The position numbers were made by a program, and so were the translations under genes. From Gemmatimonadota bacterium (lineage in GTDB: Bacteria; Gemmatimonadota; Gemmatimonadetes; Palauibacterales; Palauibacteraceae), in NCBI GenBank assembly GCA_022820995.1, contig JAJEEM010000044.1:2027-66026 (forward strand): a stretch of 64,000 bases of DNA, given 5' to 3'. Shown in pieces: positions 3,198 to 53,603 of this stretch; position 1 is the first letter of the stretch, and each line of letters begins with the position of its first letter. The notes under the pieces were generated by a model. The model saw only the letters and a program-made list of their open reading frames with translations. It was not told the origin of the DNA and searched no databases.

Positions 3198-3632
3198 ATG
3201 ATGACGGAGAACGGAAGCATACGCGGCGTGGTGGAGCGCCACGACGGGATCATCACGGTGCGCGGTGGGGGACGTCACCGGGCGTGGAACGGGATCGAAT
3301 ACAAGACGGGGATGTGGGCGGAGAACGTGGGTTCGGGCGCACTCTCCATGAACGTGGCGATGATTCCGCCAGGTGGTGTCGCCAAGGCGCATATCCACGT
3401 GGACTTCGAGGTGATGCTCTACATCCTCCAGGGCAACGTCCGCCACGAGTTTGGCCCGCGGCTCGAGAAGACGCTCGACAACGAAGCGGGCGATTTCATC
3501 TTCATCGAACCGGGTGTGCCCCACGAGGTGTTCAACCTCAGCGACACGGAACCGGTCGTGGCGGTGGTCGCGCGCTCGGACGCGCAGGAGTGGGAGAACA
3601 TCGTCGACTTCGAGCGGCCCGGGCCGGAGTAA
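3198..3632 (+). CDS. Cupin domain protein
   Basis: 144 aa at the tail of a longer spurious ORF. It carries the cupin His motifs (HIHVDFEV...PGVPHEVFN). The ATG at 3198 is in frame. Confidence 0.6.
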   Translation: MMTENGSIRGVVERHDGIITVRGGGRHRAWNGIEYKTGMWAENVGSGALSMNVAMIPPGGVAKAHIHVDFEVMLYILQGNVRHEFGPRLEKTLDNEAGDFIFIEPGVPHEVFNLSDTEPVVAVVARSDAQEWENIVDFERPGPE

Positions 3633-3711
3633 CCTCCGGACACCAGGGCAGGCCCGACGCAACAGGTCGCCCTCGTCGGGGGCGGGACATGGTTGCCATC
3701 CGTCGAGGATC

Positions 3712-3750
3712 TTGAAATATGAGCATCGGATGTTCATATTTCAAATATGA
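3712..3750. promoter_or_regulatory. AT-rich near-perfect palindrome (TTGAAATATGA-gcatcggatg-TCATATTTCAA) with a flanking AAATATGA direct repeat that contains the ATG of the next gene
   Basis: The inverted repeat is read directly from the sequence. It is strongly AT-rich in a roughly 70% GC context and lies immediately 5' of, and overlapping, the ATPase start codon. Confidence 0.35.
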
Positions 3751-4913
3751 TCGCCCGCCCCGCACACGTCGCCGAGCTTGTCCGGAAGCTGGATGCGAAC
3801 CCGGTGGTCGCCTTGCTCGGCGCCCGTCAGGTTGGCAAGACCACCCTAGCGGACATGCTGGCCCGCAACCTCGCCGAGACGGGCCACCCCGCCACGCGTC
3901 TGGACTTGGAGGATCCACGGGATCTCGCCAGACTGGACGAGCCCACCCTCACCCTTGAGCCGCTTCGCGGCCTCGTCGTGATCGATGAGATCCAGCGCAG
4001 GCCGGACCTCTTCCCCGTGCTCCGCGTGCTCGCGGACCGCAGACCGCAGCCGGCGCGCTTCCTCGTTCTGGGGAGTGCGTCGCCCGAACTCCTGCGACAA
4101 GGGTCGGAATCGCTTGCGGGCCGGATCTCGTTTCATGAACTCACGGGATTCGATCTGGTTGAGGTCGAACCGGAGCGATGGCGCAGACTGTGGCTGAGGG
4201 GCGGCTTTCCCAGGGCATGGCTGGCGCGAGGCAACGCGGCCAGCATGGAGTGGCGGCGCGATTTCATCCGAACGTTCGTGGAGCGCGATCTGCCGGACCT
4301 GGGCATCGCCCTGCCGCCGCGGCTCCTGCACGACTTCTGGACCATGCTCGCCCATTATCACGGACAGGTCTGGAACGGGTCGGAACTGGGGCGCGCATTC
4401 GGAATCGCACACACCACCGTTCGGCGCCACCTCGACCGCATGACCGGCGCCTACGTCATGCGCCAATTGCGGCCTTGGCGCGAGAACCTCGGCAAGCGCG
4501 TCGTCAAGTCACCCAAGGTCTACATCGCCGACAGCGGTCTCCTGCACGCGCTACTCGACATCCCCACCGCGCGCGACTTGGCGGCACATCCCAAGGTCGG
4601 TGCGAGCTGGGAAGGATTCGCCCTCGAACAGGTCGTGCGCCGCCTGGGCGCCCGCCCGGACGAGTGCTACTTCTGGTCGTTGCACGGCGGTCCGGAGCTG
4701 GATCTTGTGGTCGTTCGCGGCCGGCGGCGGCTCGGCTACGAGTTCAAGCGCACGGACGCGCCCCGGGCCACGGCTTCCATGCGCGCCGCCATGCGGCACC
4801 TCGGACTCGACCGTCTGGATGTCGTGCACGTCGGCCGCGATACGTTCCCGCTGGCGGAGGGAATCCGGGCGGTGGGAGGAGGCGACATATCAACCGCGGT
4901 CGAGCCGCTGTAG
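3747..4913 (+). CDS. AAA+ ATPase of the DUF4143 family
   Basis: 388 aa with Walker A GARQVGKTT, Walker B VVIDEIQ and a C-terminal DUF4143-like region. Confidence 0.75.
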   Translation: MIARPAHVAELVRKLDANPVVALLGARQVGKTTLADMLARNLAETGHPATRLDLEDPRDLARLDEPTLTLEPLRGLVVIDEIQRRPDLFPVLRVLADRRPQPARFLVLGSASPELLRQGSESLAGRISFHELTGFDLVEVEPERWRRLWLRGGFPRAWLARGNAASMEWRRDFIRTFVERDLPDLGIALPPRLLHDFWTMLAHYHGQVWNGSELGRAFGIAHTTVRRHLDRMTGAYVMRQLRPWRENLGKRVVKSPKVYIADSGLLHALLDIPTARDLAAHPKVGASWEGFALEQVVRRLGARPDECYFWSLHGGPELDLVVVRGRRRLGYEFKRTDAPRATASMRAAMRHLGLDRLDVVHVGRDTFPLAEGIRAVGGGDISTAVEPL

Positions 4914-4927
4914 CCCGGACCAACCGG

Positions 4928-6856
4928 TCAGAATCCGAGCGACGCGGTCTCCCGCCTCACGTCCCCCGCGGCAGTCATCACCCCGGTCTCCGGGTCGCGC
5001 CAGGTCACCGTGGGAGCGCCGGCCCGCCAGTTCCAGAGCCCCCATGAGCGCACGTCGTGGCCCATGGCGCGCAGCGCTTCGGCCGTCTCCGCCGGGATCC
5101 GGTCCTCCATGTAGAGGACGGCGGGATTCCGGTTCACCTCGCTGCCGGTAGCCGGGAAGTTGTAGCTGCCGAAACGGGGCTGGTCCACGGCCTGCTCGGG
5201 GGACATCCCCCACACCACGACGTTGAGGAAGACCTGCAGGAGACACTGCATCTGCTGGTCGCCACCCGGGGTGGAGAGCCCCATGAACGGTTCGCCATCC
5301 CTCATCACGAGAAGGGGCGAATTGGTGTTCCGCGGGCGCTTTCCGGGCGCCATCACATTGGCAAGGTCCGGGTCCAGGTTGAACTGGCCCATGCGGTTGC
5401 CCAGCCCGAATCCCCATCCCGGAATCATGGGGGTGAACGTGTGGCCGTCGCTCTCGGTGACGGAAAACACGTTGCCCTCGGCGTCCATCACATTCAGCGA
5501 AGACGTGTCGAACGAGGGAGCCTCCGAATCCGCCGCGTCGGCCCCCGGGAGGTCCTGCACAGCGCCTGCGGGCCGACCTCCCGGCGCCACGAAGCTCGCG
5601 GGCGCGCCCTCCGCCACCGCCGCCATACGTACCGGATCGCCCCACGGAGGCATGTCCCGGAACGCGCGATTCTCGTCGATGAGCCCGATGCGCTCGCGCG
5701 CGTACGCCTTCCCGTACAATCCCTCCGGAGCGGGCGCGAAATCCGGATCCCCGACGTACCTGTGGGCGTCCGCCATCGCGAGGTCGATCACCTGTGAGAC
5801 GAGGTGGATGTACTCCGGCGTGTTGTAGCCGAGGGCGCGCAGGTCGTAGTTCTCCAGCATGTTGAGCATCAGGATGATGCGCGGCCCCTGACTCCATCCG
5901 TCGCCGGCGTGGACGTCGTAGCCGTTGAAGCGGGTCCCCAGCGGCTCCTCCCACCGACTCTCGTATCCCGCCATGTCCTCGTACCGGACGATGCCGTCGT
6001 GCTCCCGGAAGAAGCGGTCCACGGCGCGCGCGGGGTCCCCCCGGTAGAAGGCGTCCCGCGCCGCGTGGATCCCGTCGGAGCGGCTTCCCCCCGCCGCCAG
6101 CGCCTGCCGCTCGGCCTCGATCATGTAGCGGATGAGCCGTCCCAGGTCGGCGTTCACCATGACATCGCCCAGCCGCTGCTCGCCGATTCCGTTGGGAAAC
6201 CAGAAATCGCGATTGTAGGGAAAGGCGAGGATCTCCTCCGTCTGATCCTCGATCATCCATTTCTGCATCTTGTAGAGGTGATAGCCCTCCTCGGCGATGC
6301 GCAGCGTGGGCTGCGCGGCCTCGCCGAAGCTGAGGGTGCCGAAGCGGTCGAGAGCGGCGAGCCAGACATCCACGTCCGCGGGAATCAGCGCGTTGTTGAT
6401 GGGCGACTTGCCGTGTTCGAGGAAATGGTCGAGGGTGGCGAGCGCGGGGGAGGTTCCCGCCCCGACCCGGGTGATCACGCGGTCCTCGGCCGCGCTGTAC
6501 ACGATGAGCGGCGCGACCCCGGTCCATCCCGCGTAGTCCATCTTGAGCGCCTTGAGCGCCATCCCCGCGGTCACCCCGGCGTCGAAGGCGTTGCCGCCGG
6601 CCCGGAGCACGTCGTAACCGGCCTGCGTGGCGAGATAGTGCCCGGAGGAGATCACCCCGTGCGTGCCCATGATCCGCGGCCGCATCGCCTCGACGTTGTC
6701 GGCGTCGTGGACGGCGCCGTGACTCCGGAACGGAGCGATGGTGGCGAGGACGCCTTCCTCGGCGGCTGCGGACTCCTCCGGGGCGTCCATCCCCGGACCG
6801 CACGACGCGACGAGTGCCAGAGCTGCGACCGCAACCACACGTCCGAAAGGCTTCAT
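4928..6856 (-). CDS. ggt: Gamma-glutamyltranspeptidase, lipoprotein
   Basis: 642 aa with the lipobox LVASC signal and a GGT-family layout including the conserved T-nucleophile region. It starts 4 nt after the qhpE stop on the same strand. Confidence 0.8.
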   Translation of the reverse strand: MKPFGRVVAVAALALVASCGPGMDAPEESAAAEEGVLATIAPFRSHGAVHDADNVEAMRPRIMGTHGVISSGHYLATQAGYDVLRAGGNAFDAGVTAGMALKALKMDYAGWTGVAPLIVYSAAEDRVITRVGAGTSPALATLDHFLEHGKSPINNALIPADVDVWLAALDRFGTLSFGEAAQPTLRIAEEGYHLYKMQKWMIEDQTEEILAFPYNRDFWFPNGIGEQRLGDVMVNADLGRLIRYMIEAERQALAAGGSRSDGIHAARDAFYRGDPARAVDRFFREHDGIVRYEDMAGYESRWEEPLGTRFNGYDVHAGDGWSQGPRIILMLNMLENYDLRALGYNTPEYIHLVSQVIDLAMADAHRYVGDPDFAPAPEGLYGKAYARERIGLIDENRAFRDMPPWGDPVRMAAVAEGAPASFVAPGGRPAGAVQDLPGADAADSEAPSFDTSSLNVMDAEGNVFSVTESDGHTFTPMIPGWGFGLGNRMGQFNLDPDLANVMAPGKRPRNTNSPLLVMRDGEPFMGLSTPGGDQQMQCLLQVFLNVVVWGMSPEQAVDQPRFGSYNFPATGSEVNRNPAVLYMEDRIPAETAEALRAMGHDVRSWGLWNWRAGAPTVTWRDPETGVMTAAGDVRRETASLGF

Positions 6857-6860
6857 CGCG

Positions 6861-7613
6861 TCATCCTACGGGCAGCGCCGCCAGTGCGGCCAGCGCGGCG
6901 GCCCGGCCGCGCGCGTCCGGGAAGAGTTCGAACGCGAGGGCGACGATGCCGGTCGCGTTCGCCACGGCGAAGCTGATGCCGTTGAGGTTGCGCGTCGGCG
7001 GGACGCCCGGGATCGGCCGAGGGTAGCCCGACGCATACAGCACGCGCCGCCCATCGCGGCGCCCGATGCGGACGCGGTGCCGCGGCAGATCCCAGTCGAG
7101 GCACACGCCGAGTGCGCCGGGGAGGCTGCCCGGGAACTGACGCTGTCCTTCGTGCGAATAGGCCGCGATGACGAGCGTTCCGGCCCGCGCGGCGCACTCG
7201 ACCGCGGGCTGCAGCTGTTCGATGCGGCTCTGCCGCGGCGTCCCGAGGCTCAGATTGGCCAGCCGGCAGCCGCGCTCCCCGGCCCAGTCGATGGCCTTCG
7301 CCAGCGTCCGGGCGCTCGTCGCAAGTTCGTCGTGAAAGACGCGGGCGACGTGGACCCGCGAGCCCGGCGCCTTCTCCTGGATGGCGGCGGTGACGGCGGT
7401 CCCGTGGCCCAGCCGGTCCGTCAGGTCGTCGTGCTCGCGGCCGTCGGGAGTGAACGCGATGCCGCCCGCCAGGAGCCCCAGGTGCGGATGGCCCGGATGC
7501 GCCCCGCTGTCGATGACCGCGATCGAGACGCCCCGGCCGGTCCGGCTCCAAAGCGGTTCCGCGCGCATCCGCACGGAGGGCGCCACGGGCGGTCCCGGCA
7601 CCGCCGCCGTCAC
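6861..7613 (-). CDS. qhpE: Small subtilisin-like (S8) serine protease, QhpE-like leader peptidase
   Basis: 250 aa with the D/H/S triad motifs VIDSG, HGTAV and GISFA. It overlaps the upstream ABC gene stop with ATGA. Confidence 0.75.
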   Translation of the reverse strand: MTAAVPGPPVAPSVRMRAEPLWSRTGRGVSIAVIDSGAHPGHPHLGLLAGGIAFTPDGREHDDLTDRLGHGTAVTAAIQEKAPGSRVHVARVFHDELATSARTLAKAIDWAGERGCRLANLSLGTPRQSRIEQLQPAVECAARAGTLVIAAYSHEGQRQFPGSLPGALGVCLDWDLPRHRVRIGRRDGRRVLYASGYPRPIPGVPPTRNLNGISFAVANATGIVALAFELFPDARGRAAALAALAALPVG

Positions 7614-9328
7614 CCGGCGAACAGGGCGCGGAACGCACCCGGTCGACCGTCGAGCTCCGCCGGCCGGCCATCCTGCGCGACCCGCCCGTCGCGGAGCACC
7701 ACGACGCGCTCCGCCCGTCGCGCGAGCTCCGGGCGATGCGTGATGAGCACCGTGGTCCGCCCCCGCATCAGCGCCGCATAGCCCTCGAGCACCTGCGCCT
7801 CCGAGGCCGGGTCCAGCGCCCCTGTCGCCTCGTCGAACACGAGCACGGCCGGATCGGCCAGGAAGGCCCGCGCCACGGCCACGCGCTGCCGCTCGCCGGC
7901 GGAGAGCTGCCGGCCCCGCTCTCCGACGACCGTCCCGGCCCCCTCCGGAAGCGACGCGAGCAGCCCATCGAGCGCGGCGGCCGCGAGCGCCCCGACGACC
8001 TCCGGATCCGTGGCGTCGGGCCTGGCGTACCGCACGTTCTCGGCGATCGATGCGTGGAAGATGAACGGATCCTGCTCCACCACGGCGACGTTCCGGCGCA
8101 CGTCGGCGAGCGCGAGCGCAGTCAGGTCCCGCCCGTCCAGAAGCACCCTCCCGCCATCCGGGTCGAGCTGGCGCGAGAGCAGATCCGCGACCGTCGACTT
8201 CCCGCTCCCGCTCGCGCCGACGAGCGCGACGACCTGCCCGGCGGGCACCTCCAGCGACACGCCTTCCAGCACCTCGCCTCCGCGCCCGAAGCCGAGCCTC
8301 ACGTCGTCGAAAACCAGGGCCCCCGCCGCCCTCGCCAGCCGCTCCGCCCCCTCCGCCTCCACGACCTCCAACGGCGTGTCGAAGAGTTCATGGACGCGGA
8401 CGAGCGACGCCCGCGCGCTCGCGAGGTTCGCGTACAGCCCCATCAGCGCCTGCACGGGGAAGAGGAGCCGCATCTGGTACGCCATGAACGCGACGAACGT
8501 CCCCAGCGTCGTCGCCTCCGTGATGACCCGGTAGCCCCCGTACAGGAAGACGGCGGCCGTCCCCGTCTGCAGGAGGACCCCCGGCAGGCCTCCCGCCAGG
8601 TACGTGAACCAGCGCATCGACATCAGGGCCCGCACGAACCGGTCGTTGTGGCGCCCGAACCGCGCCGCCTCCCGCTCCTGCGCGTTGGAGGCCACCACCG
8701 TCCGCACCCCCTGCAGCGTCTCGATGAGGAAGCTCCCGATGTCCGCGCTCCGCTCCCGCAGTTGCGTCACGCGCCCCTCGAGCCGGTTCCGGTACCTCAC
8801 CAGCGCCCAGAGGCTCGGCGGCAGCGCGATGAGACCCGCCAGGAAGAGCCGCGCATCGAGATGGATGAGCATCCCCACGGTCCCGATGAGGAAGAGCACG
8901 TTCCCGAACAGCCCGAGCGCCGCGTCCGCCGTCACCCGCTGGATCTCGCCGATGTCGGCGTTGATGCGCGAGACGATGTCCCCGAACGGCGTCCGTGCGT
9001 AGAACCGCGGCGAGAGCCTCTGCAGGTGGCGGTAGAGCGCCAGCCGCATGTCGAAGAGGATGCCGGCCGACACCCGCGTGTACCGCATCCCGCTCGCGAC
9101 GTTCGTCCCGAAGGCGAGAATCGTGATCCCGATGAAAAGGCCGACGATCCTGAGCAGGAGAGGGAAGTCGCCCCCCAGGATCGCGTCGTCGATCATCGCT
9201 TTCGACAGGTAGGGGAGCGCCAGCCCGAGGGCGGTCCCGGCCGTGGAAAGGAGGACCACGGGAAGCAAGGCCCCCGCGTACGGTCGGACGTAGGCGAGGG
9301 CTCGGCGAAGGTGCGGGTCCCGGATCAC
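7610..9328 (-). CDS. qhpF: ABC exporter, fused TMD-NBD (QhpF-like)
   Basis: 572 aa. The N-terminal half has six predicted TM segments. It has Walker A GASGSGKST, signature LSAGERQRVAVARA and Walker B VLVFDEAT. Confidence 0.8.
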   Translation of the reverse strand: MIRDPHLRRALAYVRPYAGALLPVVLLSTAGTALGLALPYLSKAMIDDAILGGDFPLLLRIVGLFIGITILAFGTNVASGMRYTRVSAGILFDMRLALYRHLQRLSPRFYARTPFGDIVSRINADIGEIQRVTADAALGLFGNVLFLIGTVGMLIHLDARLFLAGLIALPPSLWALVRYRNRLEGRVTQLRERSADIGSFLIETLQGVRTVVASNAQEREAARFGRHNDRFVRALMSMRWFTYLAGGLPGVLLQTGTAAVFLYGGYRVITEATTLGTFVAFMAYQMRLLFPVQALMGLYANLASARASLVRVHELFDTPLEVVEAEGAERLARAAGALVFDDVRLGFGRGGEVLEGVSLEVPAGQVVALVGASGSGKSTVADLLSRQLDPDGGRVLLDGRDLTALALADVRRNVAVVEQDPFIFHASIAENVRYARPDATDPEVVGALAAAALDGLLASLPEGAGTVVGERGRQLSAGERQRVAVARAFLADPAVLVFDEATGALDPASEAQVLEGYAALMRGRTTVLITHRPELARRAERVVVLRDGRVAQDGRPAELDGRPGAFRALFAG

Positions 9329-9379
9329 CCGGACCTCACGAAGTCGAACGCCGGATCGAAACCGGATCGCGGGCCGGGA

Positions 9380-10465
9380 TCAGCCCGGATCGGGCACCAC
9401 GACGACGCTCGTCATGTCCGCGTCCAGCGTGACGGTGCGCAGGAACTCGAACGTCTCCTCGTCGTAGATGTCGATCGTGCTCCCGGCATTGTAGATATAG
9501 AGCTTCGTGCCGTCGGCGCTCGGCATCAACGCCATCCGCGGCCGCCCCGCGAAGGTGACGCGCCCGGCGACCCGCCGGTCCCGAAGATCGAACTTCCACA
9601 TTTCGTAATGCCCGATCTCGGACTTGAGTCCGTATCCCTTCGTCCCGTCCGGAGAGAGCGCGAACGACACCCCCTCATCGGGGCCGATGGGGTGGAACTC
9701 CACGTCCTGCCCGGCGAGGTCGACGGTCGCGATGCCCATGAGACGGCGGTTCTGGAGCGGATCCGTCATGCGGAAGAGGCCCGTGTATACGCCGTCCTCC
9801 TCCTGATAGGGACTCTGGCCGAAGGGAAGCCTCATCTGCCCCAGGCCGGGCTCGAACGGCTCGGAGATCTCCCAGCGGTCGACCTCCTCGTACGTCTCGG
9901 AATCGATCACGATGAGATCCTCCGCAAACATGTAGAGGAGGTCGCCGTCGGGGGAAAAGCGGAAGTTGGCGCCCCGGCGCAGCGTCTCGCCGGGCCACGG
10001 GATCGTGTCCGTGACCTCGTACGTCGTGAGGTCGTAGCGGAGGATGGTCGGCTCGTCGATCCGGTACCGGTCCGCAAGCTTCGTGCGGCTCTGCACGTTC
10101 ATCGCCATCCATTCCTGGCTCGGATGGACCTGAAAGGAACGGATCCACGTCCGGGTGGCGCCCTCGCTCAACGTGAACTCGCCGATGGACTCCTTGGAGG
10201 GGAGCGAGATGATCTCGATCGTCTCGAAGAACGGATCCATCACGTAAAGCCGCGACCGGTCCTCGGAAACTTCGAGACGAAGGGAGATCGGACGCTTGAC
10301 CGGGATCCGGTCCACGACTTCCTCGGTGGCCTCGTCCCAGACGAGGACTTCATTGCTGTAGTTGCCCATGTACCAGTGGGCGTTCCGGCCGTTCCCCTGC
10401 GCCTCCAGCGTCCGCGCCCCACCGAGGGCGCAGGCGAAGGCGACCACTGCGACGATGCACCGCAT
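9380..10465 (-). CDS. qhpB: Beta-propeller protein, QHNDH beta subunit-like
   Basis: 361 aa with a signal peptide and repeated SPDG/ADGTKLY blade motifs. The real start is internal to a 757-aa ORF whose N-terminal extension is R/G/P junk. It begins 8 nt after the qhpC stop. Confidence 0.7.
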   Translation of the reverse strand: MRCIVAVVAFACALGGARTLEAQGNGRNAHWYMGNYSNEVLVWDEATEEVVDRIPVKRPISLRLEVSEDRSRLYVMDPFFETIEIISLPSKESIGEFTLSEGATRTWIRSFQVHPSQEWMAMNVQSRTKLADRYRIDEPTILRYDLTTYEVTDTIPWPGETLRRGANFRFSPDGDLLYMFAEDLIVIDSETYEEVDRWEISEPFEPGLGQMRLPFGQSPYQEEDGVYTGLFRMTDPLQNRRLMGIATVDLAGQDVEFHPIGPDEGVSFALSPDGTKGYGLKSEIGHYEMWKFDLRDRRVAGRVTFAGRPRMALMPSADGTKLYIYNAGSTIDIYDEETFEFLRTVTLDADMTSVVVVPDPG

Positions 10466-10473
10466 CCGCGGGA

Positions 10474-10806
10474 TCACGGGAAGACGAGGTCCAGCTTCCG
10501 CCAGTCCTTCTGCGCCGATGCGCACTGGGACGTCCAGTCCGGCGAGTGGTTGAGCTGGTCGGGCACGTGCGCCGGCCAGAAGCAGGCGAGGTGGCAGTCG
10601 AACAGGTCGCGCTCCACCGGCTGGCACAGGCCCGCGGTCCCGCCGCTCGAGTCGACCTCCCAGCCGGGCGCGAAGACGAGCGAGCACCCGAGCGGGATGT
10701 GGGGCCCCTCCGGCCGGCTCTCGAGCCCCACGACGTCCATCTCCTCGCGGGCCACCTGCGCCTCGATGCGGCCGGCCTTCTGGTTGATCGGTTTCAGCTG
10801 TTTCAC
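10474..10806 (-). CDS. qhpC: QHNDH gamma subunit precursor (Cys-rich peptide carrying CTQ and thioether cross-links)
   Basis: 110 aa, GTG start after the SD GAGGGGGAA. The Cys/Glu/Asp/Trp register is C41-E50, C61-D67, C71, C75-W77 and C75-D83. This matches the Paracoccus gamma subunit spacing (Cys7-Glu16, Cys27-Asp33, Cys37-Trp43 CTQ, Cys41-Asp49). It ends ...DWRKLDLVFP. Confidence 0.8.
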   Translation of the reverse strand: MKQLKPINQKAGRIEAQVAREEMDVVGLESRPEGPHIPLGCSLVFAPGWEVDSSGGTAGLCQPVERDLFDCHLACFWPAHVPDQLNHSPDWTSQCASAQKDWRKLDLVFP

Positions 10807-10854
10807 GGCTTCCCCCTCGCATGCGAAGGGCGACCGGGCCCGCGCCCGGCCGCG

Positions 10855-12294
10855 TCAATGGTCGAAGCGGGACAGGTACTCCGGGTTCCGCTCCGACAAC
10901 TCCCCGTAGATCTCCAGACACGTATGCGTCCACGTCCGCACCCAGGTGCAGAAGTGCAGGTTGGGCGCGGTCGTCTCGCCGTGTCGCGTGTGCGCTTCGT
11001 GATAGCAGCCGCCCGAGCAGATCGGGCGGGCCCAGCATGTATGGCAGTCCGTCTTGTTCTTGACGTGGTGGCTCTCGAGGAAATCCTTCTGCCGCTCCCG
11101 GTCGATGCCCTCCGCGACGCTGCCGAAGCTGTGGTCGTTCGAGTACGCGAAGCGGTGGCAGAGCGACACGTCGCCCCCCGTCGTCACACCCATCAGCCCG
11201 AGCCCGGCCCCGCACGGATAGGCCTTGCTCACGCCCTTGTGGATCTCCTCCAGCGTGTCCTTCACGTTCGAGAAGCCGTGGTGCCGGTTCTCGACCGCGT
11301 GATCCAGCCAGTCGCGCGCCAACTCCCCGAACTGGCGCAGCATGCGGTCGTACCCCTCGTCCTCGATCTCGTAGTCGCGCCCGGAGGAGGTCGTGACCGG
11401 GGCGAAGCCCACCTCCCAGAACCCCATCTCCTCCGTCAGGTGCTCGTAGATCCGGTGGATGTCGAGGTTTTCGCGGGTGAGCGTCACGCGCGCGCCGATC
11501 GGGCGGGACTTGTGACGCCTGAGAAGTTCCCTGATCCGCGGCTTGACGGTCTCGTAGGAGCCCTTGCCGCTGTGGAAGACCCGCATGCGGTCCTGCATCT
11601 CCTTCGGTCCGTCGATGGAGACGGTCACGCCGATCTCGTTGTCCGCCAGCCACTCGATGATGTCGGGGCGGAGGAGCGTCGCGTTCGTCGTGAGACTGAA
11701 CTCGATCCGCTTCCCCTCCTCCTCGGCGCGCTTGCGGGCGTAGGCCACCGTGTCCTGGAGGACGGGGAAGTTGAGCAGCGTCTCACCGCCGAAGAAGGTG
11801 AGGTGCGCGACCTCGAGGGGGCCCGACTCCTTCAGGAGGAACTCGACGCTCTCCCGGGCCGTCTCGTCCCCCATGAACTTCGGGTCGTCCGTGCATGTCG
11901 TGTCGACGATCTTGTCCTCGCCGTACTCGTAGCAGTACGTGCACGCGAGATTGCACTTGTTCGTGACGTTGAGGACCATCGTCGTGAGCGGGAAGCCGTC
12001 CGGCGGCAGATCGTTCACGACCTGTTCGGCGGGAGCCCCCGCCTCCCCGATGGCTCGGATCTGCTGGAGCTCCAGCAACCCGTCGTGGACGCGGTCGACG
12101 GGGTAGCGGTCGGAAAGAGAGTTCACGACCTCGCCCGGCGCGCGGGGACCGTAGCTCAGCAGATCGAGGATCGCCGACGACGCTGCATCGATGCGGAAGA
12201 TGCCGGCCGAGGGGACGAGGTAGAGGAACCGCTCGCCTGCCGCCTCGAATGCATGGAATTCACGCAGCGCCAGTTGGCCGACGGGCTTGATCAC
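10855..12294 (-). CDS. qhpD: Radical SAM / SPASM-domain maturase (QhpD-like thioether-forming enzyme)
   Basis: About 479 aa with CNLACTYC (CxxxCxxC) and a C-terminal Cys-rich SPASM region (CGAGLG...CHRF, CHTCWARPICSGGCYHEA). The GTG start overlaps the qhpA stop (GTGA). Confidence 0.85.
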   Translation of the reverse strand: MIKPVGQLALREFHAFEAAGERFLYLVPSAGIFRIDAASSAILDLLSYGPRAPGEVVNSLSDRYPVDRVHDGLLELQQIRAIGEAGAPAEQVVNDLPPDGFPLTTMVLNVTNKCNLACTYCYEYGEDKIVDTTCTDDPKFMGDETARESVEFLLKESGPLEVAHLTFFGGETLLNFPVLQDTVAYARKRAEEEGKRIEFSLTTNATLLRPDIIEWLADNEIGVTVSIDGPKEMQDRMRVFHSGKGSYETVKPRIRELLRRHKSRPIGARVTLTRENLDIHRIYEHLTEEMGFWEVGFAPVTTSSGRDYEIEDEGYDRMLRQFGELARDWLDHAVENRHHGFSNVKDTLEEIHKGVSKAYPCGAGLGLMGVTTGGDVSLCHRFAYSNDHSFGSVAEGIDRERQKDFLESHHVKNKTDCHTCWARPICSGGCYHEAHTRHGETTAPNLHFCTWVRTWTHTCLEIYGELSERNPEYLSRFDH

Positions 12295-14063
12295 GGAACC
12301 AGCCTCCCCGTGGGAACCCCCTGCCAGGGGTCGAACTTGAGGTAGAGCGGCACCGTCACGATGAGGTGCGCCCGCGCGCGGAGACTCCGGGAAGCACCCG
12401 CATCGGCGTCGGAGCCCGCATAGGTCGCGACGATCCACACGTCGCCGACGTTGTTCCGGCTGCCCGTGCGGTCGGTATTCGGGCCATCGATCGCGGGGGT
12501 GAAGACGCCGTCGGACCCGAGCGCCCCGACGTATTGGATGTCGTCGTCGTCGAAGGTCGCCGCGTACTCCTCCATGCTCCAGGTCACCGGCACGCGCCCG
12601 AGCCGGAGATCGTCCTCCGTGTTCGGTTCTCCGTCGGGGCCGTCGTCCCACCCGATCGCGTCGTAGGGCTGATATCCCTTGGGAAAGGCCCCGCCGCCGA
12701 TCCGGGCCATGCCCGCGCGCGGCGTCACCTCGAGGCGGTCCACGCCATCGTGCACCTGAATCGCGCCCCGAAGGCTCGCGCCGGCGAGGAAGAGGTCGCG
12801 CTCCCCGACCGGTGCGTCATCGTCGACGGAAAGGCGGATCGTAATCCGGTCCCCATCGCCGCCCGTGGCGGACTCGACGCGGACACCGCGACCGAAGTCG
12901 AAGTCCGCCGGGTCGGGGTTCGCCGGCAGGTTCGCGCCGTGGACCCGGAGTTCGGCGGACGACGCGACGCGGATCGCCCGCGGGTGGACGCCCGATACGA
13001 CGGGGCCGCCGCTCACGCGGGTCAGCTTCACGTCGGGGCCGAACTCGTCGTACGCGCCCCTGAACCAACGGCCGGTCATCTCCTGCCAGTCGCGGTCGAC
13101 GGTCATGACCTCGCGCAACTCGTCCTGACCGCCCGGATTCGAACGCCCGCGCCACTGGTAGCCGGTATAGACGATGGACTGCCCGCTCCGGCTCTCCTGC
13201 TCCCCCGACTCCGCGTATGCGTACGTGATCGCGGTCCGGAATTCATCCGGGGCGTCGCCGGCGGTGATCTCCACCGTTCCGAAGACCTGCCCCTTCCCGG
13301 GCTCGAACCCGGCCAGCGCCCATGTGCCGGCGAGACGCGGCGTCCGCATCGAGGCCGACCAGGCGGACCACTCCGGCGTCTCGAGCGGGAAGGCTTCGGA
13401 GAGGTGGTCGATCGCCTCGTCCACGGGCTGGGGACCATCGCCCCCGCCCTGGAAGGCCTGGAAGTCGACGAGCGGGTAGAGACCGCGGTGCGTCGCCATG
13501 AGGAGTTCCCACTCCTCGCGCGTGCGTCGCTGGGTGATGACGCGGCCCATGCTGTGGCACTGGATGCAGGTGTTCTCGACGTCGCGGTCCGCCTCGTAAA
13601 CGTGCTCGATGAGGCGTCGCTCGACCTCGAAGCGGCCGGGCTCGAGTTCCTCCGGAGCGAGCCCCTGCCGGTTGGAGAGATAGCGCACGACCTCGCGCGC
13701 CTCATCGGGACCGAGGGAGACGTCGTTGAGCGCGACCATCCGGCGGACCGACGTCTGCCACCCTTCCGGCGTCTTCCGCTCGTAGGAGATCCGCGTCATC
13801 CGCCCCTCGTCATCGCGCTCGTGACAGCGCTGACAGCGGACGATGATGACCTGGCTGTCGATCGGATAACCCTCGTCGTCGGCCTGCCCCGGGGCTCCCG
13901 CGGTGCCGGCGAACCGAGCCGAAGCGAGGTCGACGGCCGGAGTCGAGGGCATGTCCGGGACCGGAGGCAGAGCGCGCGCGCCGAGGAAAACCAGCGCGCC
14001 GACGGCCATTGCGGCCGCCGGCAGTCGGTCAAGTGCCCGTCGCGTAGTCGCTTTGCGTCTCAT
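12291..14063 (-). CDS. qhpA: Diheme cytochrome c, QHNDH alpha subunit-like
   Basis: About 590 aa. The ATG at 14063 follows a GGAGGA SD. It has a signal peptide and two CxxCH heme motifs (CQRCH, CIQCH) followed by a large beta-rich C-terminal region. Confidence 0.8.
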   Translation of the reverse strand: MRRKATTRRALDRLPAAAMAVGALVFLGARALPPVPDMPSTPAVDLASARFAGTAGAPGQADDEGYPIDSQVIIVRCQRCHERDDEGRMTRISYERKTPEGWQTSVRRMVALNDVSLGPDEAREVVRYLSNRQGLAPEELEPGRFEVERRLIEHVYEADRDVENTCIQCHSMGRVITQRRTREEWELLMATHRGLYPLVDFQAFQGGGDGPQPVDEAIDHLSEAFPLETPEWSAWSASMRTPRLAGTWALAGFEPGKGQVFGTVEITAGDAPDEFRTAITYAYAESGEQESRSGQSIVYTGYQWRGRSNPGGQDELREVMTVDRDWQEMTGRWFRGAYDEFGPDVKLTRVSGGPVVSGVHPRAIRVASSAELRVHGANLPANPDPADFDFGRGVRVESATGGDGDRITIRLSVDDDAPVGERDLFLAGASLRGAIQVHDGVDRLEVTPRAGMARIGGGAFPKGYQPYDAIGWDDGPDGEPNTEDDLRLGRVPVTWSMEEYAATFDDDDIQYVGALGSDGVFTPAIDGPNTDRTGSRNNVGDVWIVATYAGSDADAGASRSLRARAHLIVTVPLYLKFDPWQGVPTGRLVP

Positions 14064-14166
14064 CCATCCTCCGTTCCGAACCGGTGAATTGTGCGCGAAA
14101 CGGAGCGGATGCGCCACCCCGAACGGGGCCTTCTCCACGCCTCGCGCCCACGCGCCCGCCCATCCG

Positions 14167-15708
14167 TCACGGGTCGGTCAGCTCGAGGAAGCCCGCGCCC
14201 ACCGCGAACGAGAGGGCGGCCAGGAAGTCCGGGAGCGGCACCGCCGTCCCGCGCCGGTTGTACGCCTCGAACAGGTCGGGCACCTGATCGGAGTCCGGCG
14301 CGATCTCCGTGAGCCGGCGGAGGTCGACGTTGCGTACGTAGCGCGCGCCGTCCGGGAGTCGGTCGGAGATAAGGCGCGCCTCGAGGGCGATCCGGTCCTC
14401 GACGACGGCGGGCCGTCGCACGCTCGAGAGTCGCGCCGCCGGGCGCAGGTGCACGGCCGGCAGCGAACGGATCGTCTCCCACGCCGTCCGCACTTCCGGG
14501 CGCCCCAGGAAGGCGTCGACCCGGCGTTCCGCGAGCGGGCGGTCTCCGGGTTCCGACACCGCGGGCGCTCCGGGCGCGGAGGCGGGCCCCGGGAGGTCCG
14601 CGCCCGCTTCCCGCGCCGCAGCCAGGCGAACCTCCCAGAACGCGTGGTCGTTCGCGGCGGCGGCCTGCTCGAAAAAGGGGACGGAGAGCACCCGGTAGGT
14701 CCGGTACACATCGCGTTCCCGGTCGTCGTACAACTCGCAGGCCGGCCCGACCATCGTCTCATCGTCCAGCGCCGTGTGAGTGACGATCGCGGCGAGCCAG
14801 GCGGAGGCGAGCGCCTTCTTGACCCCGTACGAGGAGAGGGGGTCGATGAAGGAGCCGGCGTCGCCGACGAGGAGCAGGCCCGGCCGGCCGTGCGAGGCTG
14901 CGCCGTAGAGCGACGCGGGGCAGGCGCGCACCGGCCCGTCCAGCCGTCCGTCGGCGAGGCGCTCGGCGAGCCGCGCCGCCTTGGCGAGTTCGGCGCGCCA
15001 CATGCCGTCGAGGCCCTTCTCGCGCGCCAGGTGCGTGCGGCGCGGGTCGACCATCGCCGTAACGCAGCGGGTACGCGGCGATGTCGGCACCGACCAGGCC
15101 CACCCGTCCGCGTAGCTCTCGATGAGCGTACAGCCGGGGTCCGGCGGAGCGTGCCCGCGGCCCGCGGTCCAGCGGCCGACGAGCGCGAGCGTGGCGATCC
15201 CGCGTTCGCGCGCCCGCAGCCCGCGCCGGGCGAACACCCCGGCCCGCCCGGAGGCGTCGAGCACCCAGCGACCCCGGTAGCGCGCGGTCGAGGTGGCGAC
15301 GCGCCAGCCATCGGGCTCCTCGGCCGTCTCGATGACCGGTCCGTCCGTCACGAGGCGCACGCCCGCCTTGCGGGCCACTCCGTGGAAGACGGCTTCAAGC
15401 GCCGCCCGATCCGCATGGAAACCATGCTCGGGCGCCCCGAACCGTTCTTCACGGCGGGGCATCCCGGCCCACCAGACGGTGTTGCCCTCGTTCGGCACGA
15501 GGCCCGCCGCGTCCAGGGCTTCCAGCGCTCCCACGCGTTCGAGGAGCTTCCGCGCCGAGCCGGGGATCGACTCGGCGAGCCATTTCGCCGGCGGCGCCGG
15601 CCGCGTGATCAGCGCTACGTCATGCCCGCGCCGCGCCAGCGACGCGGCGGCGGCGCAGCCGGCCGGCCCCCCGCCGACAACAACGACGTCGTACGGCGTA
15701 CCTGTCAG
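14167..15708 (-). CDS. qhpG: FAD-dependent monooxygenase (QhpG-like, tryptophan-halogenase/hydroxylase fold)
   Basis: The GGGPAG dinucleotide-binding motif (YDVVVVGGGPAG) lies upstream of the first in-frame GTG (15534). There is no ATG/GTG/TTG between the upstream in-frame TAA (15715-15717) and that motif. A CTG at 15708 gives a canonical Rossmann N-terminus. Confidence 0.65.
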   Translation of the reverse strand: MTGTPYDVVVVGGGPAGCAAAASLARRGHDVALITRPAPPAKWLAESIPGSARKLLERVGALEALDAAGLVPNEGNTVWWAGMPRREERFGAPEHGFHADRAALEAVFHGVARKAGVRLVTDGPVIETAEEPDGWRVATSTARYRGRWVLDASGRAGVFARRGLRARERGIATLALVGRWTAGRGHAPPDPGCTLIESYADGWAWSVPTSPRTRCVTAMVDPRRTHLAREKGLDGMWRAELAKAARLAERLADGRLDGPVRACPASLYGAASHGRPGLLLVGDAGSFIDPLSSYGVKKALASAWLAAIVTHTALDDETMVGPACELYDDRERDVYRTYRVLSVPFFEQAAAANDHAFWEVRLAAAREAGADLPGPASAPGAPAVSEPGDRPLAERRVDAFLGRPEVRTAWETIRSLPAVHLRPAARLSSVRRPAVVEDRIALEARLISDRLPDGARYVRNVDLRRLTEIAPDSDQVPDLFEAYNRRGTAVPLPDFLAALSFAVGAGFLELTDP

Positions 15709-15714
15709 GTCGGC

Positions 15715-16398
15715 TTACCGCTCCCGCCGCGAGAACTGCAGCAGCAGGTCGCCGCCGCTCGGCCCATCCGTCGCGAAGCAGTAGAAGCGCCCGTCACCCC
15801 CCGTCCCGCGCAGATTCTCGAGGCTGCAGCCCCGCGACCCGTGGGCCTCGTTCCACGAGGTCGGGTTCTGTCCGCCACCCACGCGGTCGTGGTGCCCGAC
15901 GAGCGCGCTCCCCTCACCGCTCGACGTCCAGTTGCCGCACGTCGTGTCCCCGTCGGCGTCCGACGCCATGCCGTTCATCAGGGACCCGGTGAGGATGTCG
16001 TGCTGGTTCGGCTGGTCGCCCCGCCCGTTCACCTCGCTGCCGGTCTCCGTGAGGATCGTGGCCTTCGTGAGGTTCGGGCCGTTGCTGTGCAGGTGCTCGA
16101 CATCCCGGGCGATCATCGTGCCCGCGTGGTTGTACCACGGCCCGTCTCCGATGCGGTCGCGCGCGTTCACGCCGCCCGCGCCCGTCGTGCTCAGGTAGGC
16201 CCGCCACATGCGGTCGGGCAGCCCCGCCGCCTCGGCCAGCGCCTCGCAGTAGGCGTCCGCGCCCTCGAGACCGCCGAGATCCGCGCCGTCCCCCGGATTC
16301 GAACTGGTGATGAAGAAGCTGATGTTCTCGTCCTGCGCTGCCGCCCCGCCCGCGCCGAATGCGAACAGGATGGCCATGAAGCCAATCGTGCGTCTCAT
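15715..16398 (-). CDS. Secreted hypothetical protein with a Cys-containing lectin-like C-terminal region
   Basis: 227 aa with a signal peptide and the C-terminal stretch ...CGNWTSS...SWNEAHGSRGC...GRFYCFA. Its stop lies directly before qhpG and in the same frame. Confidence 0.45.
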   Translation of the reverse strand: MRRTIGFMAILFAFGAGGAAAQDENISFFITSSNPGDGADLGGLEGADAYCEALAEAAGLPDRMWRAYLSTTGAGGVNARDRIGDGPWYNHAGTMIARDVEHLHSNGPNLTKATILTETGSEVNGRGDQPNQHDILTGSLMNGMASDADGDTTCGNWTSSGEGSALVGHHDRVGGGQNPTSWNEAHGSRGCSLENLRGTGGDGRFYCFATDGPSGGDLLLQFSRRER

Positions 16399-16431
16399 CT
16401 CCGACTCCCGTGCTGGTTGTTGCGAAATCTG

Positions 16432-17457
16432 CTAACGCCGGATGTACTTTCTCATCTGACGGGGTCCGACCTCGGCCCCGTAGAGGTTGCCGTGCGCGTC
16501 GACGGCGATTCCCTCCGCGCCGCTCGTGCCGGAGGCGTCCTGATTGGGTTCCGGATCCGGGATGAAGGCCGTCACCCAGCCGGTCGCCGCGTCGCCGATG
16601 TAGATGCCGCGGAGCCACCCCTTGTTGCGGCGCGCGTTCGACTCCGAGTCCGTCGAGTAGAGGACATCGCCCTCGTCGATGAACAGTCCGCTCGGACGTC
16701 CGAACTGGTGCCAGGTTTCGAGGTGGTTCCCCTCCTGATCGAAGATCTGGACGCGGCTGTTCCCGCGATCGCCGACGAAGAGACGTCCCTGCGAGTCCAT
16801 CGCGAGCGCGTGCGGGTCGCGGAACTCGCCGTTCGCCGTGCCCATGCGTCCCCATTCCATGAGGAAGGAGCCATCGGGCGCGAACTTCACGATGCGGTTG
16901 TTGCCGCCCGCGTCGTGCCCGTCCGCCACGAAGATGCTGCCGTCGGGCGCGACGAGGATGTCCGACGGCTTGTTGAAGTGGTTCGGGCCGTCGCCGGCGA
17001 CGCCTTTCTCGCCCAGCGTCATCAGGACCTCACCCTCAGGGCTGAACTTGTAGACCACGTGTCCCCAGCCCTCCGGCACCGGCGCGTATCCCACGGCATC
17101 GGCCACCCATACGCTGCCGTCCTCCTCGACGAACATCCCGTGCGGCCACGCGATCAGTCCCGAACCGAAACTCCGCACGAGGTTCCCCTCGGTATCGAAG
17201 AGCAGGATCGGGTCGACGTCGCTCTCGACGCACAGGTTCGCGCCGCACCGCTCGCCCACCCAGATGTGTTCGCCGTCCGGGGCCGGGTAGACGGCGCTGG
17301 TCGCGCCCCACGCGCGTCCGTCGGGAAGCTGGCCCCAGCCGTCCATCGCCCTGTACGGGTTCGGCGCCGTCAACTGCGCCGCGAGCGCGCCGGCGCCCGA
17401 AATGGCCGCCGCAAGCGCGAGTGTCGCGATGAATCCGATTCGCCTTGTGCCTTGCAT
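16432..17457 (-). CDS. Secreted NHL-repeat beta-propeller protein (PAL-like)
   Basis: 341 aa with a signal peptide and repeated NHL-like blades (FVADGHDAGGNNRIVKF, FVGDRGNSRVQIFD). The real start is internal to a 685-aa ORF. Confidence 0.65.
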   Translation of the reverse strand: MQGTRRIGFIATLALAAAISGAGALAAQLTAPNPYRAMDGWGQLPDGRAWGATSAVYPAPDGEHIWVGERCGANLCVESDVDPILLFDTEGNLVRSFGSGLIAWPHGMFVEEDGSVWVADAVGYAPVPEGWGHVVYKFSPEGEVLMTLGEKGVAGDGPNHFNKPSDILVAPDGSIFVADGHDAGGNNRIVKFAPDGSFLMEWGRMGTANGEFRDPHALAMDSQGRLFVGDRGNSRVQIFDQEGNHLETWHQFGRPSGLFIDEGDVLYSTDSESNARRNKGWLRGIYIGDAATGWVTAFIPDPEPNQDASGTSGAEGIAVDAHGNLYGAEVGPRQMRKYIRR

Positions 17458-17561
17458 CCGTCCTCCTGTCCTTCCGATCCGCGCCATCCGTGTCGGGCCG
17501 AAGACGATGGGACGCCAACGGCAAAGCGGGCAAGCGGCGCAGCGGGGCGGGGTGCGGCGGA

Positions 17562-19004
17562 CTACTCCGCCAGGGCCGTCCGGCCGCCGCCCTTCGCCTT
17601 CGCAGCCAGCTTGCCGAAGGGTCCGCTGATCGCCCACGCCGCGCCCACGACGATGAGCGCGAGCGCGCCCCAGCGCATGAGGGCGGCGGCCAGCGCTCCG
17701 TCGAAGGCGGGCCACGCAAATCGGTAGGCCAGCAGGTCGGAGCCCCGGTCCGTCATCCAGTGCCAGCCCGTGTGCGCCAGCAGCGCCGACCCGATGATCG
17801 TCCCCATCCGCTCCGCCACGACCTTCCGGAACACCACCTCGACCACCGGAACGGCGACCGCGACCACGACGAGCTGTCCCAGTTCCACGCCGACGTTGAA
17901 CGCGAGCAGGGACGTGAGCAGATGCCCGCCCGCGAACTGCAGCGACTCGCTGAGCGCGAACGAAAAGCCGAACCCGTGCACGAGCCCGAATCCGAACGCG
18001 AGCAGCCAGCGTTTTCGAGGTTTCGCGCCGACGATGTTCTCGAGCGCCATGTAGACGATCGAGAGCGCGATGAGGGTTTCGATCAGCGGCGGGAACCAGA
18101 GGGCGCGCGGCGCGATGCCGAAGGCGGAGGCGATGAGCGTGATCGAGTGCGCGATCGTGAAGGAGGTGATGACGGGGATCAGACCCCACAGCGTCCGCAG
18201 CGGGATGACGAGACAGAGGAGGAAGAGGAGGTGGTCGATCCCGTCGAGGATGTGCGTGAAGCCGAGCGACACGAAGCGCAGCGCCGCCTGGTGCCAGCGG
18301 GGGTCGAGCCGCACGAGCCCCGGGTCGCCGACGTACTGGAAGACGCGCTCCGGCCGGTCCGGCGGCCGCAGGCGCAGCACCGTGACCGTGCGCAGGCCGA
18401 GGTGCGCGAAGCCCGGATCGATCGAGAAGCGGGACTCGTCCGACGCGATATCGTACTCCAGCAATACATCGAGCAGAGCCTGGCGCCACGGGAGCTGCAG
18501 CCCCGGGTCGAGCGGCGGGGCGTCGAAGTGCGCCAGCGCCGTCTCGTAGCTCGCGAAGGACCGGTCCGAGGGGAGCGAGACGCGGGTTGCGACGATGCGG
18601 GGCGCCTCCAGGCGCCGATCCTCCTCGTAGAACGTCACGTAGTCGGCGAGCCAGAGTTGCGCGGCGTCCCGGAGGAACGGGTCCGCCGCCTCCAGGTCCA
18701 GATACCCGAGTCCGTACCGGGGGAACTCGATGTCCCTCATCGCCTCGAGCGGCGCACGGACGAGGAAACGGAGACGGGATCCCTCCGGCGTGACGAAGGC
18801 CTGCACGGTGACGTCCGCCGGAATCTCGTGCGGCACGGCAGCGGTCGCCCCGGCCGCCCGATCCGACGCCGCCCGTTCAGGCACCTCCCGCTCGGGTGCC
18901 GCCCGTGCCGCGCCGGCCAGACTCGTCAGGCCGTAAAGCGCGAGAACGCACCCCATCAGGGGCGCCGTGCGCCGGGCGGGACGCCGTGTGTCACCTCGCT
19001 TCAT
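17562..19004 (-). CDS. Fusion of a novel periplasmic N-terminal domain with a HupE/UreJ-family membrane domain
   Basis: About 480 aa. The C-terminal roughly 230 aa has the HupE/UreJ-type motifs HILDGIDHLLF and FGFGLVHGFGF with multiple TM segments. The N-terminal roughly 250 aa has no recognisable family. Confidence 0.55.
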   Translation of the reverse strand: MKRGDTRRPARRTAPLMGCVLALYGLTSLAGAARAAPEREVPERAASDRAAGATAAVPHEIPADVTVQAFVTPEGSRLRFLVRAPLEAMRDIEFPRYGLGYLDLEAADPFLRDAAQLWLADYVTFYEEDRRLEAPRIVATRVSLPSDRSFASYETALAHFDAPPLDPGLQLPWRQALLDVLLEYDIASDESRFSIDPGFAHLGLRTVTVLRLRPPDRPERVFQYVGDPGLVRLDPRWHQAALRFVSLGFTHILDGIDHLLFLLCLVIPLRTLWGLIPVITSFTIAHSITLIASAFGIAPRALWFPPLIETLIALSIVYMALENIVGAKPRKRWLLAFGFGLVHGFGFSFALSESLQFAGGHLLTSLLAFNVGVELGQLVVVAVAVPVVEVVFRKVVAERMGTIIGSALLAHTGWHWMTDRGSDLLAYRFAWPAFDGALAAALMRWGALALIVVGAAWAISGPFGKLAAKAKGGGRTALAE

Positions 19005-50965: not shown

Positions 50966-51118
50966 GCGGATCGCTCCTCGGATGGGGCGGACGGGGCCGG
51001 TCGGCACGCTAGCCCCGGCCCGTCCGAATCCGCAACGCCGCGGCGACGCTACCGGGCGGCGGATGCGACGGTCTATGTTCAGGCGACGCCAAGGCCGCTC
51101 CAGACCCGGGAGGATCCC

Positions 51119-53513: not shown

Positions 53514-53531
53514 ACGTTCCCGCGGGAACGT
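53514..53531. terminator. Perfect 18-bp palindrome ACGTTCCCGCGGGAACGT, 26 nt after the S9 peptidase stop, overlapping a second near-palindrome CGCGGGAACGTCCCGCG
   Basis: Read directly from the sequence. It has no U-tail, so it is a hairpin candidate only. Confidence 0.35.
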
Positions 53532-53547: not shown

Positions 53548-53603
53548 GGATTTGGTATACATTTTCCGCCACCGGGTGTCCGGTTTGGTATACATTTTCT
53601 GCC
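53548..53603. repeat. Two 24-25 bp direct repeats (GG(A)TTTGGTATACATTTTC(C/T)GCCAC) 8 bp apart
   Basis: Read directly from the sequence. They form an AT-rich core with a GTATAC palindrome and lie about 155 bp upstream of the beta-lactamase-family gene. Confidence 0.35.

Follow-up and report, generated by a model that had tools for sequence, protein, structure and literature searches.

A Gamma-Glutamyltranspeptidase-Family Gene behind the qhp Cluster of a Gemmatimonadota Bacterium: A Probably Accidental Juxtaposition, Recently Tightened by a 93-nt Deletion

Organization of the qhp–GGT Locus

A stretch of 64,000 nucleotides (the window) from a Gemmatimonadota bacterium (assembly GCA_022820995.1, contig JAJEEM010000044.1, positions 2,027 to 66,026) carries the qhp genes of a quinohemoprotein amine dehydrogenase (QHNDH) and, directly downstream of them, a gene of the gamma-glutamyltranspeptidase (GGT) family. 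The qhp cluster has the order qhpG–qhpA–qhpD–qhpC–qhpB–qhpF–qhpE, and all of these genes run in one direction with the GGT gene on the minus strand. The GGT open reading frame (ORF) at 4928–6856 encodes 642 aa, and qhpE at 6861–7613 encodes 250 aa. Read on the minus strand, the junction is ...ctgcccgtAGGATGAcgcgATGaag, or ...ctgcccgtAGGATGAcgcgATGaagcc over a longer stretch. The TGA stop of qhpE occupies 6863–6861, the spacer cgcg 6860–6857 and the ATG of the GGT gene 6856–6854. A preliminary description of this DNA had placed the ATG 4 nt past the qhpE stop on the same strand, and both coordinates and spacing proved exact. It had also considered the two genes very likely co-transcribed and a functional link to the amine dehydrogenase conceivable. 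The shared strand, the 4 nt and the lack of any promoter-sized or terminator-sized gap between qhpE and the GGT gene were all borne out, but the functional link found no support. As described below, the junction is probably an accidental juxtaposition that was tightened recently by a deletion.

The same 4-nt junction was recovered twice more, in a 230-kb scaffold from ENA and in a Logan contig that a different assembler had produced independently, and a full-length identical QhpE with the deletion-specific C-terminus was on record on three contigs. The junction is therefore not an artefact of one assembler. A scan of positions 3500–16500 for sigma-70 promoters and terminators detected no site at the junction, nor did it detect a promoter of the qhp cluster, so such a scan is uninformative for this phylum.

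The product of qhpE is a subtilisin-like S8 protease (PF00082). Its best NCBIfam match was QhpE NF049966, with 152 bits against a cut-off of 165; this model may under-call QhpE of Gemmatimonadota, and the context of qhpE in the window is unambiguous. The other qhp genes, all on the minus strand, were qhpF (7610–9328, ABC exporter, ABC_membrane and ABC_tran), qhpB (9380–10429, beta subunit of QHNDH), qhpC (10474–10806, gamma subunit precursor of 110 aa), qhpD (10855–12300, radical SAM enzyme, Radical_SAM and Fer4_12), qhpA (12291–14138, dihaem alpha subunit, PF09098, PF14930, PF09099 and PF09100) and qhpG (14167–15534, flavoprotein monooxygenase). The qhpB ORF had no Pfam match and was assigned because it stands between qhpC and qhpF and is conserved in all qhp loci that were examined; its start is approximate, as relatives are called at 361 aa. 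For qhpC, the PF08992 match (QH-AmDH_gamma) was obtained on the orthologous gene in relatives. The coordinates of qhpA and qhpG are those of maximal ORFs (relatives are called at 591 aa for qhpA and one relative at 431 aa for qhpG), and qhpG was recognized by a Trp_halogenase-like match and a position conserved in relatives.

The cluster thus resembles the qhp operon of Paracoccus denitrificans and Pseudomonas putida (qhpABCDEFGR), the same genes from qhpA to qhpG being present in one direction. No qhpR was identified beside the qhp cluster, the rest of the window not having been searched for it. Described qhp operons, whether qhpABCDEFGR (PMC7876137) or qhpRADCBFE in Methyloversatilis (PMC5023235), have no GGT-family gene, and the GGT gene is none of the described components, qhpA–G or qhpR. 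This agrees with the preliminary description, which had set the GGT gene outside described qhp loci.

Conservation of the Adjacency in Related Genomes

Loci of relatives, designated by L-numbers (L001, L004 and so on), were compared with the window. With one genome taken per species, 80 loci with an orthologue of the window GGT were obtained, and qhp genes near the GGT gene were located by tblastn with all qhp proteins. Gene calling based on G+C content at third codon positions (GC3) was crude in these loci, and the genes already called on the relatives' contigs were used instead. The nearest GGT and QhpE proteins (90–100% identity) were those of Candidatus Palauibacter, to which the bacterium of the window belongs. 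Most of the names in this genus of Gemmatimonadota were given to bins from sponge and marine metagenomes. Genes of the qhp cluster were found upstream of the GGT gene in 8 of the 80 loci (L004, L005, L006, L007, L053, L054, L062 and L079), all of them of Palauibacter type with a GGT identity of at least 88%. The examined stretch of the other 72 loci contained no qhp genes, and one of these, L001, has qhp about 50 kb upstream. GGT orthologues without nearby qhp genes were spread over about 70 other species at 60–88% identity, and those at 83–87% included metagenome-assembled genomes (MAGs) labelled Longimicrobiales, Vicinamibacteria, Marinacidobacterium, Gammaproteobacteria and Dehalococcoidia.

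The reverse survey, in which QhpE homologues were traced to their contigs, yielded five qhp loci in which no GGT gene follows qhpE; they represent four lineages, of which two are Palauibacter. In L087 (Ca. P. irciniicola, QhpE 90%), L091 (Palauibacter, 83%) and the more distant L088 (69%), qhpE was followed by a convergent cupin gene, and in L092 and L093 (QhpE 58%) by an amino-acid permease gene. The cupin gene past qhpE in the GGT-free loci is the same one that lies beyond the GGT gene in the window. Since it is common to both arrangements, the GGT gene fills a place beside qhpE and the cupin gene, between the two, that other lineages leave unoccupied. Across lineages, no conserved co-occurrence of the GGT gene with qhp was found. 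The preliminary description had proposed a survey of whether ggt follows qhp in related genomes; the adjacency turned out to be confined to one genus, with a spacer ranging from 4 nt to about 50 kb. A role of the GGT protein in the maturation of QhpC was also considered and was ruled out, as almost all qhp loci lack the GGT gene.

A universal functional partner of the GGT gene was sought across the 80 loci and none was found, the partners being specific to clades. In one Longimicrobiales clade an amidase-signature gene begins about 5 nt after the GGT gene, with hydantoinase-like and HAD hydrolase genes flanking and an NHL-repeat gene as a further partner, while in one Acidobacteriota clade the GGT gene precedes dnaX and recR. 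Amine dehydrogenase genes are not among the partners in these other clades. In the window, the neighbours of the GGT gene are the qhp genes and genes for an AAA/DUF4143 ATPase, a cupin, an amidohydrolase and NAD salvage. In a neighbour-joining tree, the Palauibacter GGTs formed one clade, and an Acidobacteriota clade was nested among those of Gemmatimonadota at 83–87% identity. This degree of identity holds across MAGs labelled Gemmatimonadota, Acidobacteriota (Vicinamibacteria, Marinacidobacterium), Gammaproteobacteria and Dehalococcoidia, in which the neighbourhoods differ, and suggests that the subfamily spread horizontally between phyla or that some bin labels are wrong.

The window also encodes an NHL-repeat protein with a weak ScyF-like match upstream of qhpG (16432–17460, minus strand). 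A homologous gene with about 71% nucleotide identity was found in Longimicrobiales (L089:12458–14828), two genes downstream of the GGT gene and after the amidase gene. The neighbourhood of GGT, amidase and NHL genes may be an older context of the GGT gene.

Spacer Variation and the Deletion between qhpE and the GGT Gene

Among Palauibacter-type loci, the spacer between qhpE and the GGT gene varied widely in length and content. It contained only the leader of the GGT gene when 96–97 nt long (L053, L054, L081 and L090) or 126 nt long (L005). A spacer of 582–652 nt was found in L007, L062 and L079, and in L062 it holds a same-strand gene (L062:9542–9925) for a predicted lipoprotein of 127 aa (MKKLTSVLLVSALSAGC...) with no family assignment; by spacer homology, L079 and L007 are likewise. 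The spacer of L006 (2874 nt) includes an integrase fragment (Phage_int_M), and that of L082 (3514 nt, GGT 95% identical) three opposite-strand genes, which gave no matches in PADLOC or Pfam. The longest spacer, of about 50 kb, was an integrase island between L086 and L001, which lie on the same 3.80-Mb chromosome (NZ_OZ253465.1): a Phage_integrase gene follows qhpE there, and the GGT gene lies about 50 kb further on.

This island is bounded by a direct repeat of a 16-bp core, CGTTCCCGCGGGAACG. One copy lies 3 nt past the qhpE stop (L086:6753–6775) and the other just upstream of the GGT gene (L001:9900–9925). An intact site is present at L081:9903–9922, the window has lost the site by deletion, and the insertions in L082 and L006 break within the same palindrome. 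The flanking repeat and the insertions that break in the palindrome mark the region between qhpE and the GGT gene as an attachment site and a hotspot for mobile DNA, and the 16-bp core looks like an attB site for integrase-borne islands. In Palauibacter genomes, islands thus have an attachment site defined by this core.

Alignment of the 220 nt upstream of the GGT gene revealed a conserved leader of about 95 nt, GTTCCCGCGGGAAC...TTGCCG-16 nt-TAGCTT...ACAGGAGGATGACGCG-ATG, which begins with the 16-bp core. The leader accompanies the GGT gene whether it stands behind qhpE (L081, L053, L054 and L005), behind opposite-strand genes (L082), at the end of the island (L001) or behind unrelated genes (L003), and it is present in L006 as well. 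As the GGT gene is not transcribable from qhp in several of these relatives, it must have its own promoter, for which TTGCCG-N16-TAGCTT is a candidate. A second leader block, GGGTC.CCATCTCGGG, was present in some lineages and absent in others. A riboswitch or other structured RNA in the leader was rejected, with no Rfam match at E ≤ 10 and a minimum free energy of −42 kcal/mol (z = −0.11 against shuffled sequences).

In the window most of this leader is gone. Homology to the qhp side of relatives ends at 6869 and homology to the GGT side begins at 6867, and pairwise alignment with L081 gave a clean gap of 93 nt in the window, with the deletion junction at about 6867/6868. With these 93 nt went the native stop of qhpE, the attachment (att) palindrome, the block resembling a promoter and the first half of GGAGG. 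What remains, as judged from the break of homology in pairwise and multiple alignments, is a leader remnant of the GGT gene, AGGATGACGCG, at 6857–6867 (minus strand), within which AGGA at 6867–6864 is a residual Shine-Dalgarno sequence, 7 nt before the ATG. For its stop, qhpE now uses the TGA of the old ribosome-binding region of the GGT gene, AGGAGGATGACGCG, and comparison of the C-terminus with relatives showed that the last four or so codons and the stop of qhpE were created by the deletion. Genomes with QhpE 96–97% and GGT 94–95% identical to those of the window retain the spacer of 96–97 nt, so by parsimony the deletion occurred recently in the lineage of the window.

A spacer of 4 nt was also found in L004, where it had come about by a different route. 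About 125 nt of spacer DNA are retained there, the native qhpE stop is lost, and reading continues until the same TGA, 4 nt ahead of the GGT start codon (L004:9870–9999), which lengthens QhpE by about 40 residues.

Properties of the GGT-Family Protein

The GGT-family protein matched PF01019 (G_glu_transpept) with E 4e-92 and 310 bits against a cut-off of 27, over profile positions 2–511 of 512. This full-length match places it in the GGT superfamily of N-terminal nucleophile (Ntn) hydrolases (MEROPS T03). The protein had been described as periplasmic. Its export was upheld and its location refined, since the N-terminus, MKPFGRVVAVAALALVAS|C, has a lipobox (…LVAS|C) ending in Cys19 in the signal peptide encoded at 6800–6856 (minus strand, read from the direct translation), which predicts export as a lipoprotein.

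The catalytic apparatus of the family is conserved. The predicted autoprocessing site is D450|T451, and Thr451 (codon at 5504–5506, minus strand), the predicted catalytic and autoprocessing nucleophile, aligned with T391 of E. coli Ggt (Ala in the T391A mutant 2e0w) and T421 of LmbA2991. Conservation was assessed in an alignment of 121 sequences, made up of 120 homologues down to 64% identity and the window protein. T451 was Thr in all 120 sequences with a residue at this column. The oxyanion pair G531–G532 aligned with G483–G484 of E. coli, and G531 was invariant in 121 of 121. The window protein thus resembles E. coli Ggt (PDB 2DBU/2E0W; TIGR00066) in its full-length Pfam domain, its export, its Thr nucleophile precursor and its Gly-Gly oxyanion hole, and S469 corresponds to T409 as the Thr/Ser partner. 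It differs in having about 40 additional residues inserted ahead of the nucleophile and a predicted lipoprotein anchor.

The pocket is not that of a canonical GGT. The TIGR00066 equivalog cut-off was not reached (241.2 against 357.85 bits), and NF007187 gave 145 bits against a cut-off of 990. Reportedly, from the 2006 structures of Okada et al., R114, N411, Q430, D433, S462 and S463 of E. coli GGT bind the alpha-carboxylate and alpha-amino groups of the gamma-glutamyl moiety. In the phmmer alignment these residues correspond to A133, G471, R488, Q491, N510 and T511 of the window protein, respectively, so that none of the six is kept. The replacement residues are themselves almost fixed: A133 and N510 were invariant in 121 of 121 sequences, G471 and R488 in 120 of 120 with a residue at the column, Q491 was Gln in 119, and T511 was Thr in 115 and Ser in the other 6. 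Near-invariant replacements of this kind indicate a distinct, selected substrate pocket. The preliminary description had suggested that the enzyme might liberate primary amines from gamma-glutamyl-amines; the active site gives this idea no support, both in its six replaced residues and in the best solved relative of the protein, LmbA2991, for which a lack of gamma-glutamyl activity is reported.

LmbA2991 (PDB 6J3A and 6J3I) was the best sequence match among solved structures, with E 1.7e-56 against 6e-43 for E. coli, and in a Foldseek search with the AlphaFold2 (AF2) model (mean predicted local distance difference test score, pLDDT, of 71.8) it was also the best fold match, with a TM-score of 0.71 normalised to the query and 0.78 to the target and 27% identity over the alignment. 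The two proteins share the D|T autoprocessing dipeptide, an Arg at the position of Q430 and a K/R-R-P-R motif. No signal peptide is seen in the deposited LmbA2991 chain, in contrast to the lipoprotein signal predicted for the window protein. LmbA2991 comes from Streptomyces, and this GGT homologue undergoes autoprocessing at D|T and breaks a C–C bond; LmbA-like proteins form a clade distinct from gamma-glutamyltransferases, and the natural role of LmbA2991 is unknown (PMC5519988). According to the authors' published reply, LmbA and Ant6, likewise actinobacterial GGT homologues that cleave a C–C bond, have no gamma-glutamyl transfer or hydrolysis activity (PMC6085292). Genes for 4-alkyl-L-proline biosynthesis (LmbB1/B2/W/X/Y-type) were not found among the GGT neighbours examined. 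A further GGT-fold enzyme with altered specificity, the class IV cephalosporin acylase of Bacillus halodurans (PDB 2NLZ), had the same fold (TM-score 0.68–0.69 normalised to the query) and full-length precursor architecture at 22–23% identity, and nothing pointed to acylase substrates for the window protein.

With the nearest solved relative at 27% identity, the substrate is not fixed, but the presumption of a gamma-glutamyl substrate is removed. The enzyme is probably not a glutathione or gamma-glutamyl hydrolase, and the label gamma-glutamyltransferase that automatic annotation gives it probably misleads. It is likely a hydrolase that processes itself and uses a Thr nucleophile, with a conserved pocket of another kind and no dependence on the amine dehydrogenase. 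The branch of the GGT fold to which it belongs is well conserved and uncharacterised, has a rebuilt donor pocket and is shared across phyla by MAGs derived for the most part from sponge and marine metagenomes.

Origin of the Junction and Alternative Explanations

We consider it likely that the junction arose by accident. In Palauibacter, a gene for an exported GGT-family Ntn hydrolase stands downstream of qhpGADCBFE with its own leader of about 95 nt, and with the 16-bp core of this leader serving as an island attachment site, the spacer is a hotspot of insertion and deletion. In the lineage of the window, 93 nt were lost, which took away the stop that qhpE originally had, the att palindrome, the block resembling a promoter and one half of the Shine-Dalgarno sequence and left qhpE to end at the TGA in the old ribosome-binding region, 4 nt before the GGT start. 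The GGT gene would then most likely be transcribed by read-through from qhp and possibly be translationally coupled to qhpE, its product acting independently of the amine dehydrogenase on whatever fits its different pocket. Because the gene's own leader is deleted, read-through is made more likely in the window strain, so that the co-transcription put forward in the preliminary description is plausible there and probably the likeliest state. A conserved functional link between the GGT protein and the amine dehydrogenase is not supported by the conservation of the adjacency, the history of the junction or the active site.

Several points weigh against this explanation. The same-strand order of qhpE and the GGT gene is kept in at least 10 Palauibacter species, and weak selection for their proximity is conceivable. 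The window and L004 reached a qhpE stop 4 nt before the GGT start independently. The candidate promoter was assigned by reading the sequence only, and the leader is modular and partly missing in some relatives. The pocket was compared by sequence alignment at about 25–30% identity and with an AF2 model of medium confidence.

A less favoured explanation, which we consider unlikely, is that the deletion crippled expression of the GGT gene, so that it would be silent or weakly expressed, with decay starting, and the junction would be a scar and not an operon. The loss of the conserved leader and of GGAGG, leaving AGGA alone, is in line with this, and the youth of the event would have given little time for visible decay. 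However, the ORF is full-length with every catalytic residue intact, and the ratio of nonsynonymous to synonymous substitution rates (dN/dS) of the GGT gene was 0.14–0.17 against the three closest orthologues, similar to other pairs, which indicates purifying selection. AGGA at 7 nt from the ATG and the stop-to-start distance of 4 nt are, moreover, compatible with coupled translation. The gene shows no sign of decay, and the deletion may be too young to show any.

Functional coupling, in which the GGT-like hydrolase would act in the periplasm, freeing primary amines from gamma-glutamyl-amines or from other amides for oxidation by QHNDH, and the deletion would be an adaptive capture into an operon under amine-inducible control, appears improbable. 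Both products are exported, one by its predicted lipobox and the other as a periplasmic enzyme (PMC7876137), and the order conserved within Palauibacter, the 4-nt junction reached in two lineages and a gene still intact and under purifying selection after the deletion would all fit. Against this stand the absence of the adjacency outside one genus, a spacer repeatedly broken by mobile DNA, up to 50 kb in length, the occurrence of each partner without the other (GGT in about 70 species, qhp in five loci of four lineages), the replacement of all canonical gamma-glutamyl-binding residues, and the pairing of the gene in other clades with an amidase gene or with dnaX and recR. The specific form of this idea, in which a leaderless GGT-like periplasmic hydrolase under qhp control would supply QHNDH with amines from a host-derived amide, is just as improbable. 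If it were true, a two-step pathway from amide to aldehyde would be in the course of assembly, and the enzyme would be a symbiosis enzyme with a substrate new for the GGT fold, its subfamily reaching 83–87% identity across MAGs that bear the label Gemmatimonadota or Acidobacteriota, of which many belong to sponge metagenome series.

An assembly or binning artefact, in which the 93-nt gap would be a mis-assembly, is very improbable: the missing segment does hold a perfect 14-nt GC-rich palindrome and other GC-rich sequence, which can be hard to assemble, but the identical junction in the ENA scaffold and the Logan contig and the deletion-specific QhpE C-terminus on three contigs speak against it.

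If the junction is indeed accidental, the locus is an example of how a small deletion at an integration hotspot can turn two transcription units into an apparent operon, and a warning not to infer function when genes are found tightly spaced in one genome only. Its value for pathway discovery would be small, the link between qhp and the GGT gene being positional and not functional, a product of ordinary genome dynamics.

Other Observations

Convergent with the GGT gene, an accessory gene for an AAA_14/DUF4143 ATPase occupies 3747–4913 on the plus strand. It was recognized by Pfam and matched PDC-S01, a PADLOC candidate defence family, with E 6e-75. This gene is a variable insertion between the GGT and cupin genes, present in L004, L079 and L082 and absent in L001, L003 and L005.

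A second exact copy of GTTCCCGCGGGAAC was found in the window at 53516–53529, 28 nt past the stop of an ORF for a DPP-IV/S9 peptidase-like protein (49880–53488). Two direct copies of TTTGGTATACATTTTC follow it at about 53550–53600. An integrase gene was sought near this copy at 53.5 kb and none was found. The second copy might represent a secondary att site that is not occupied, or else a terminator or operator that is shared.

Two observations concern the GGT gene itself in relatives. In L081, a block at 12403–17807 has a Phage_AlpA excisionase-like gene after the GGT gene, followed by a second GGT copy of 573 aa. In L053 and L054, the GGT match ends at residue 507, at about 11520, and an element may integrate into the 3' part of the GGT gene.

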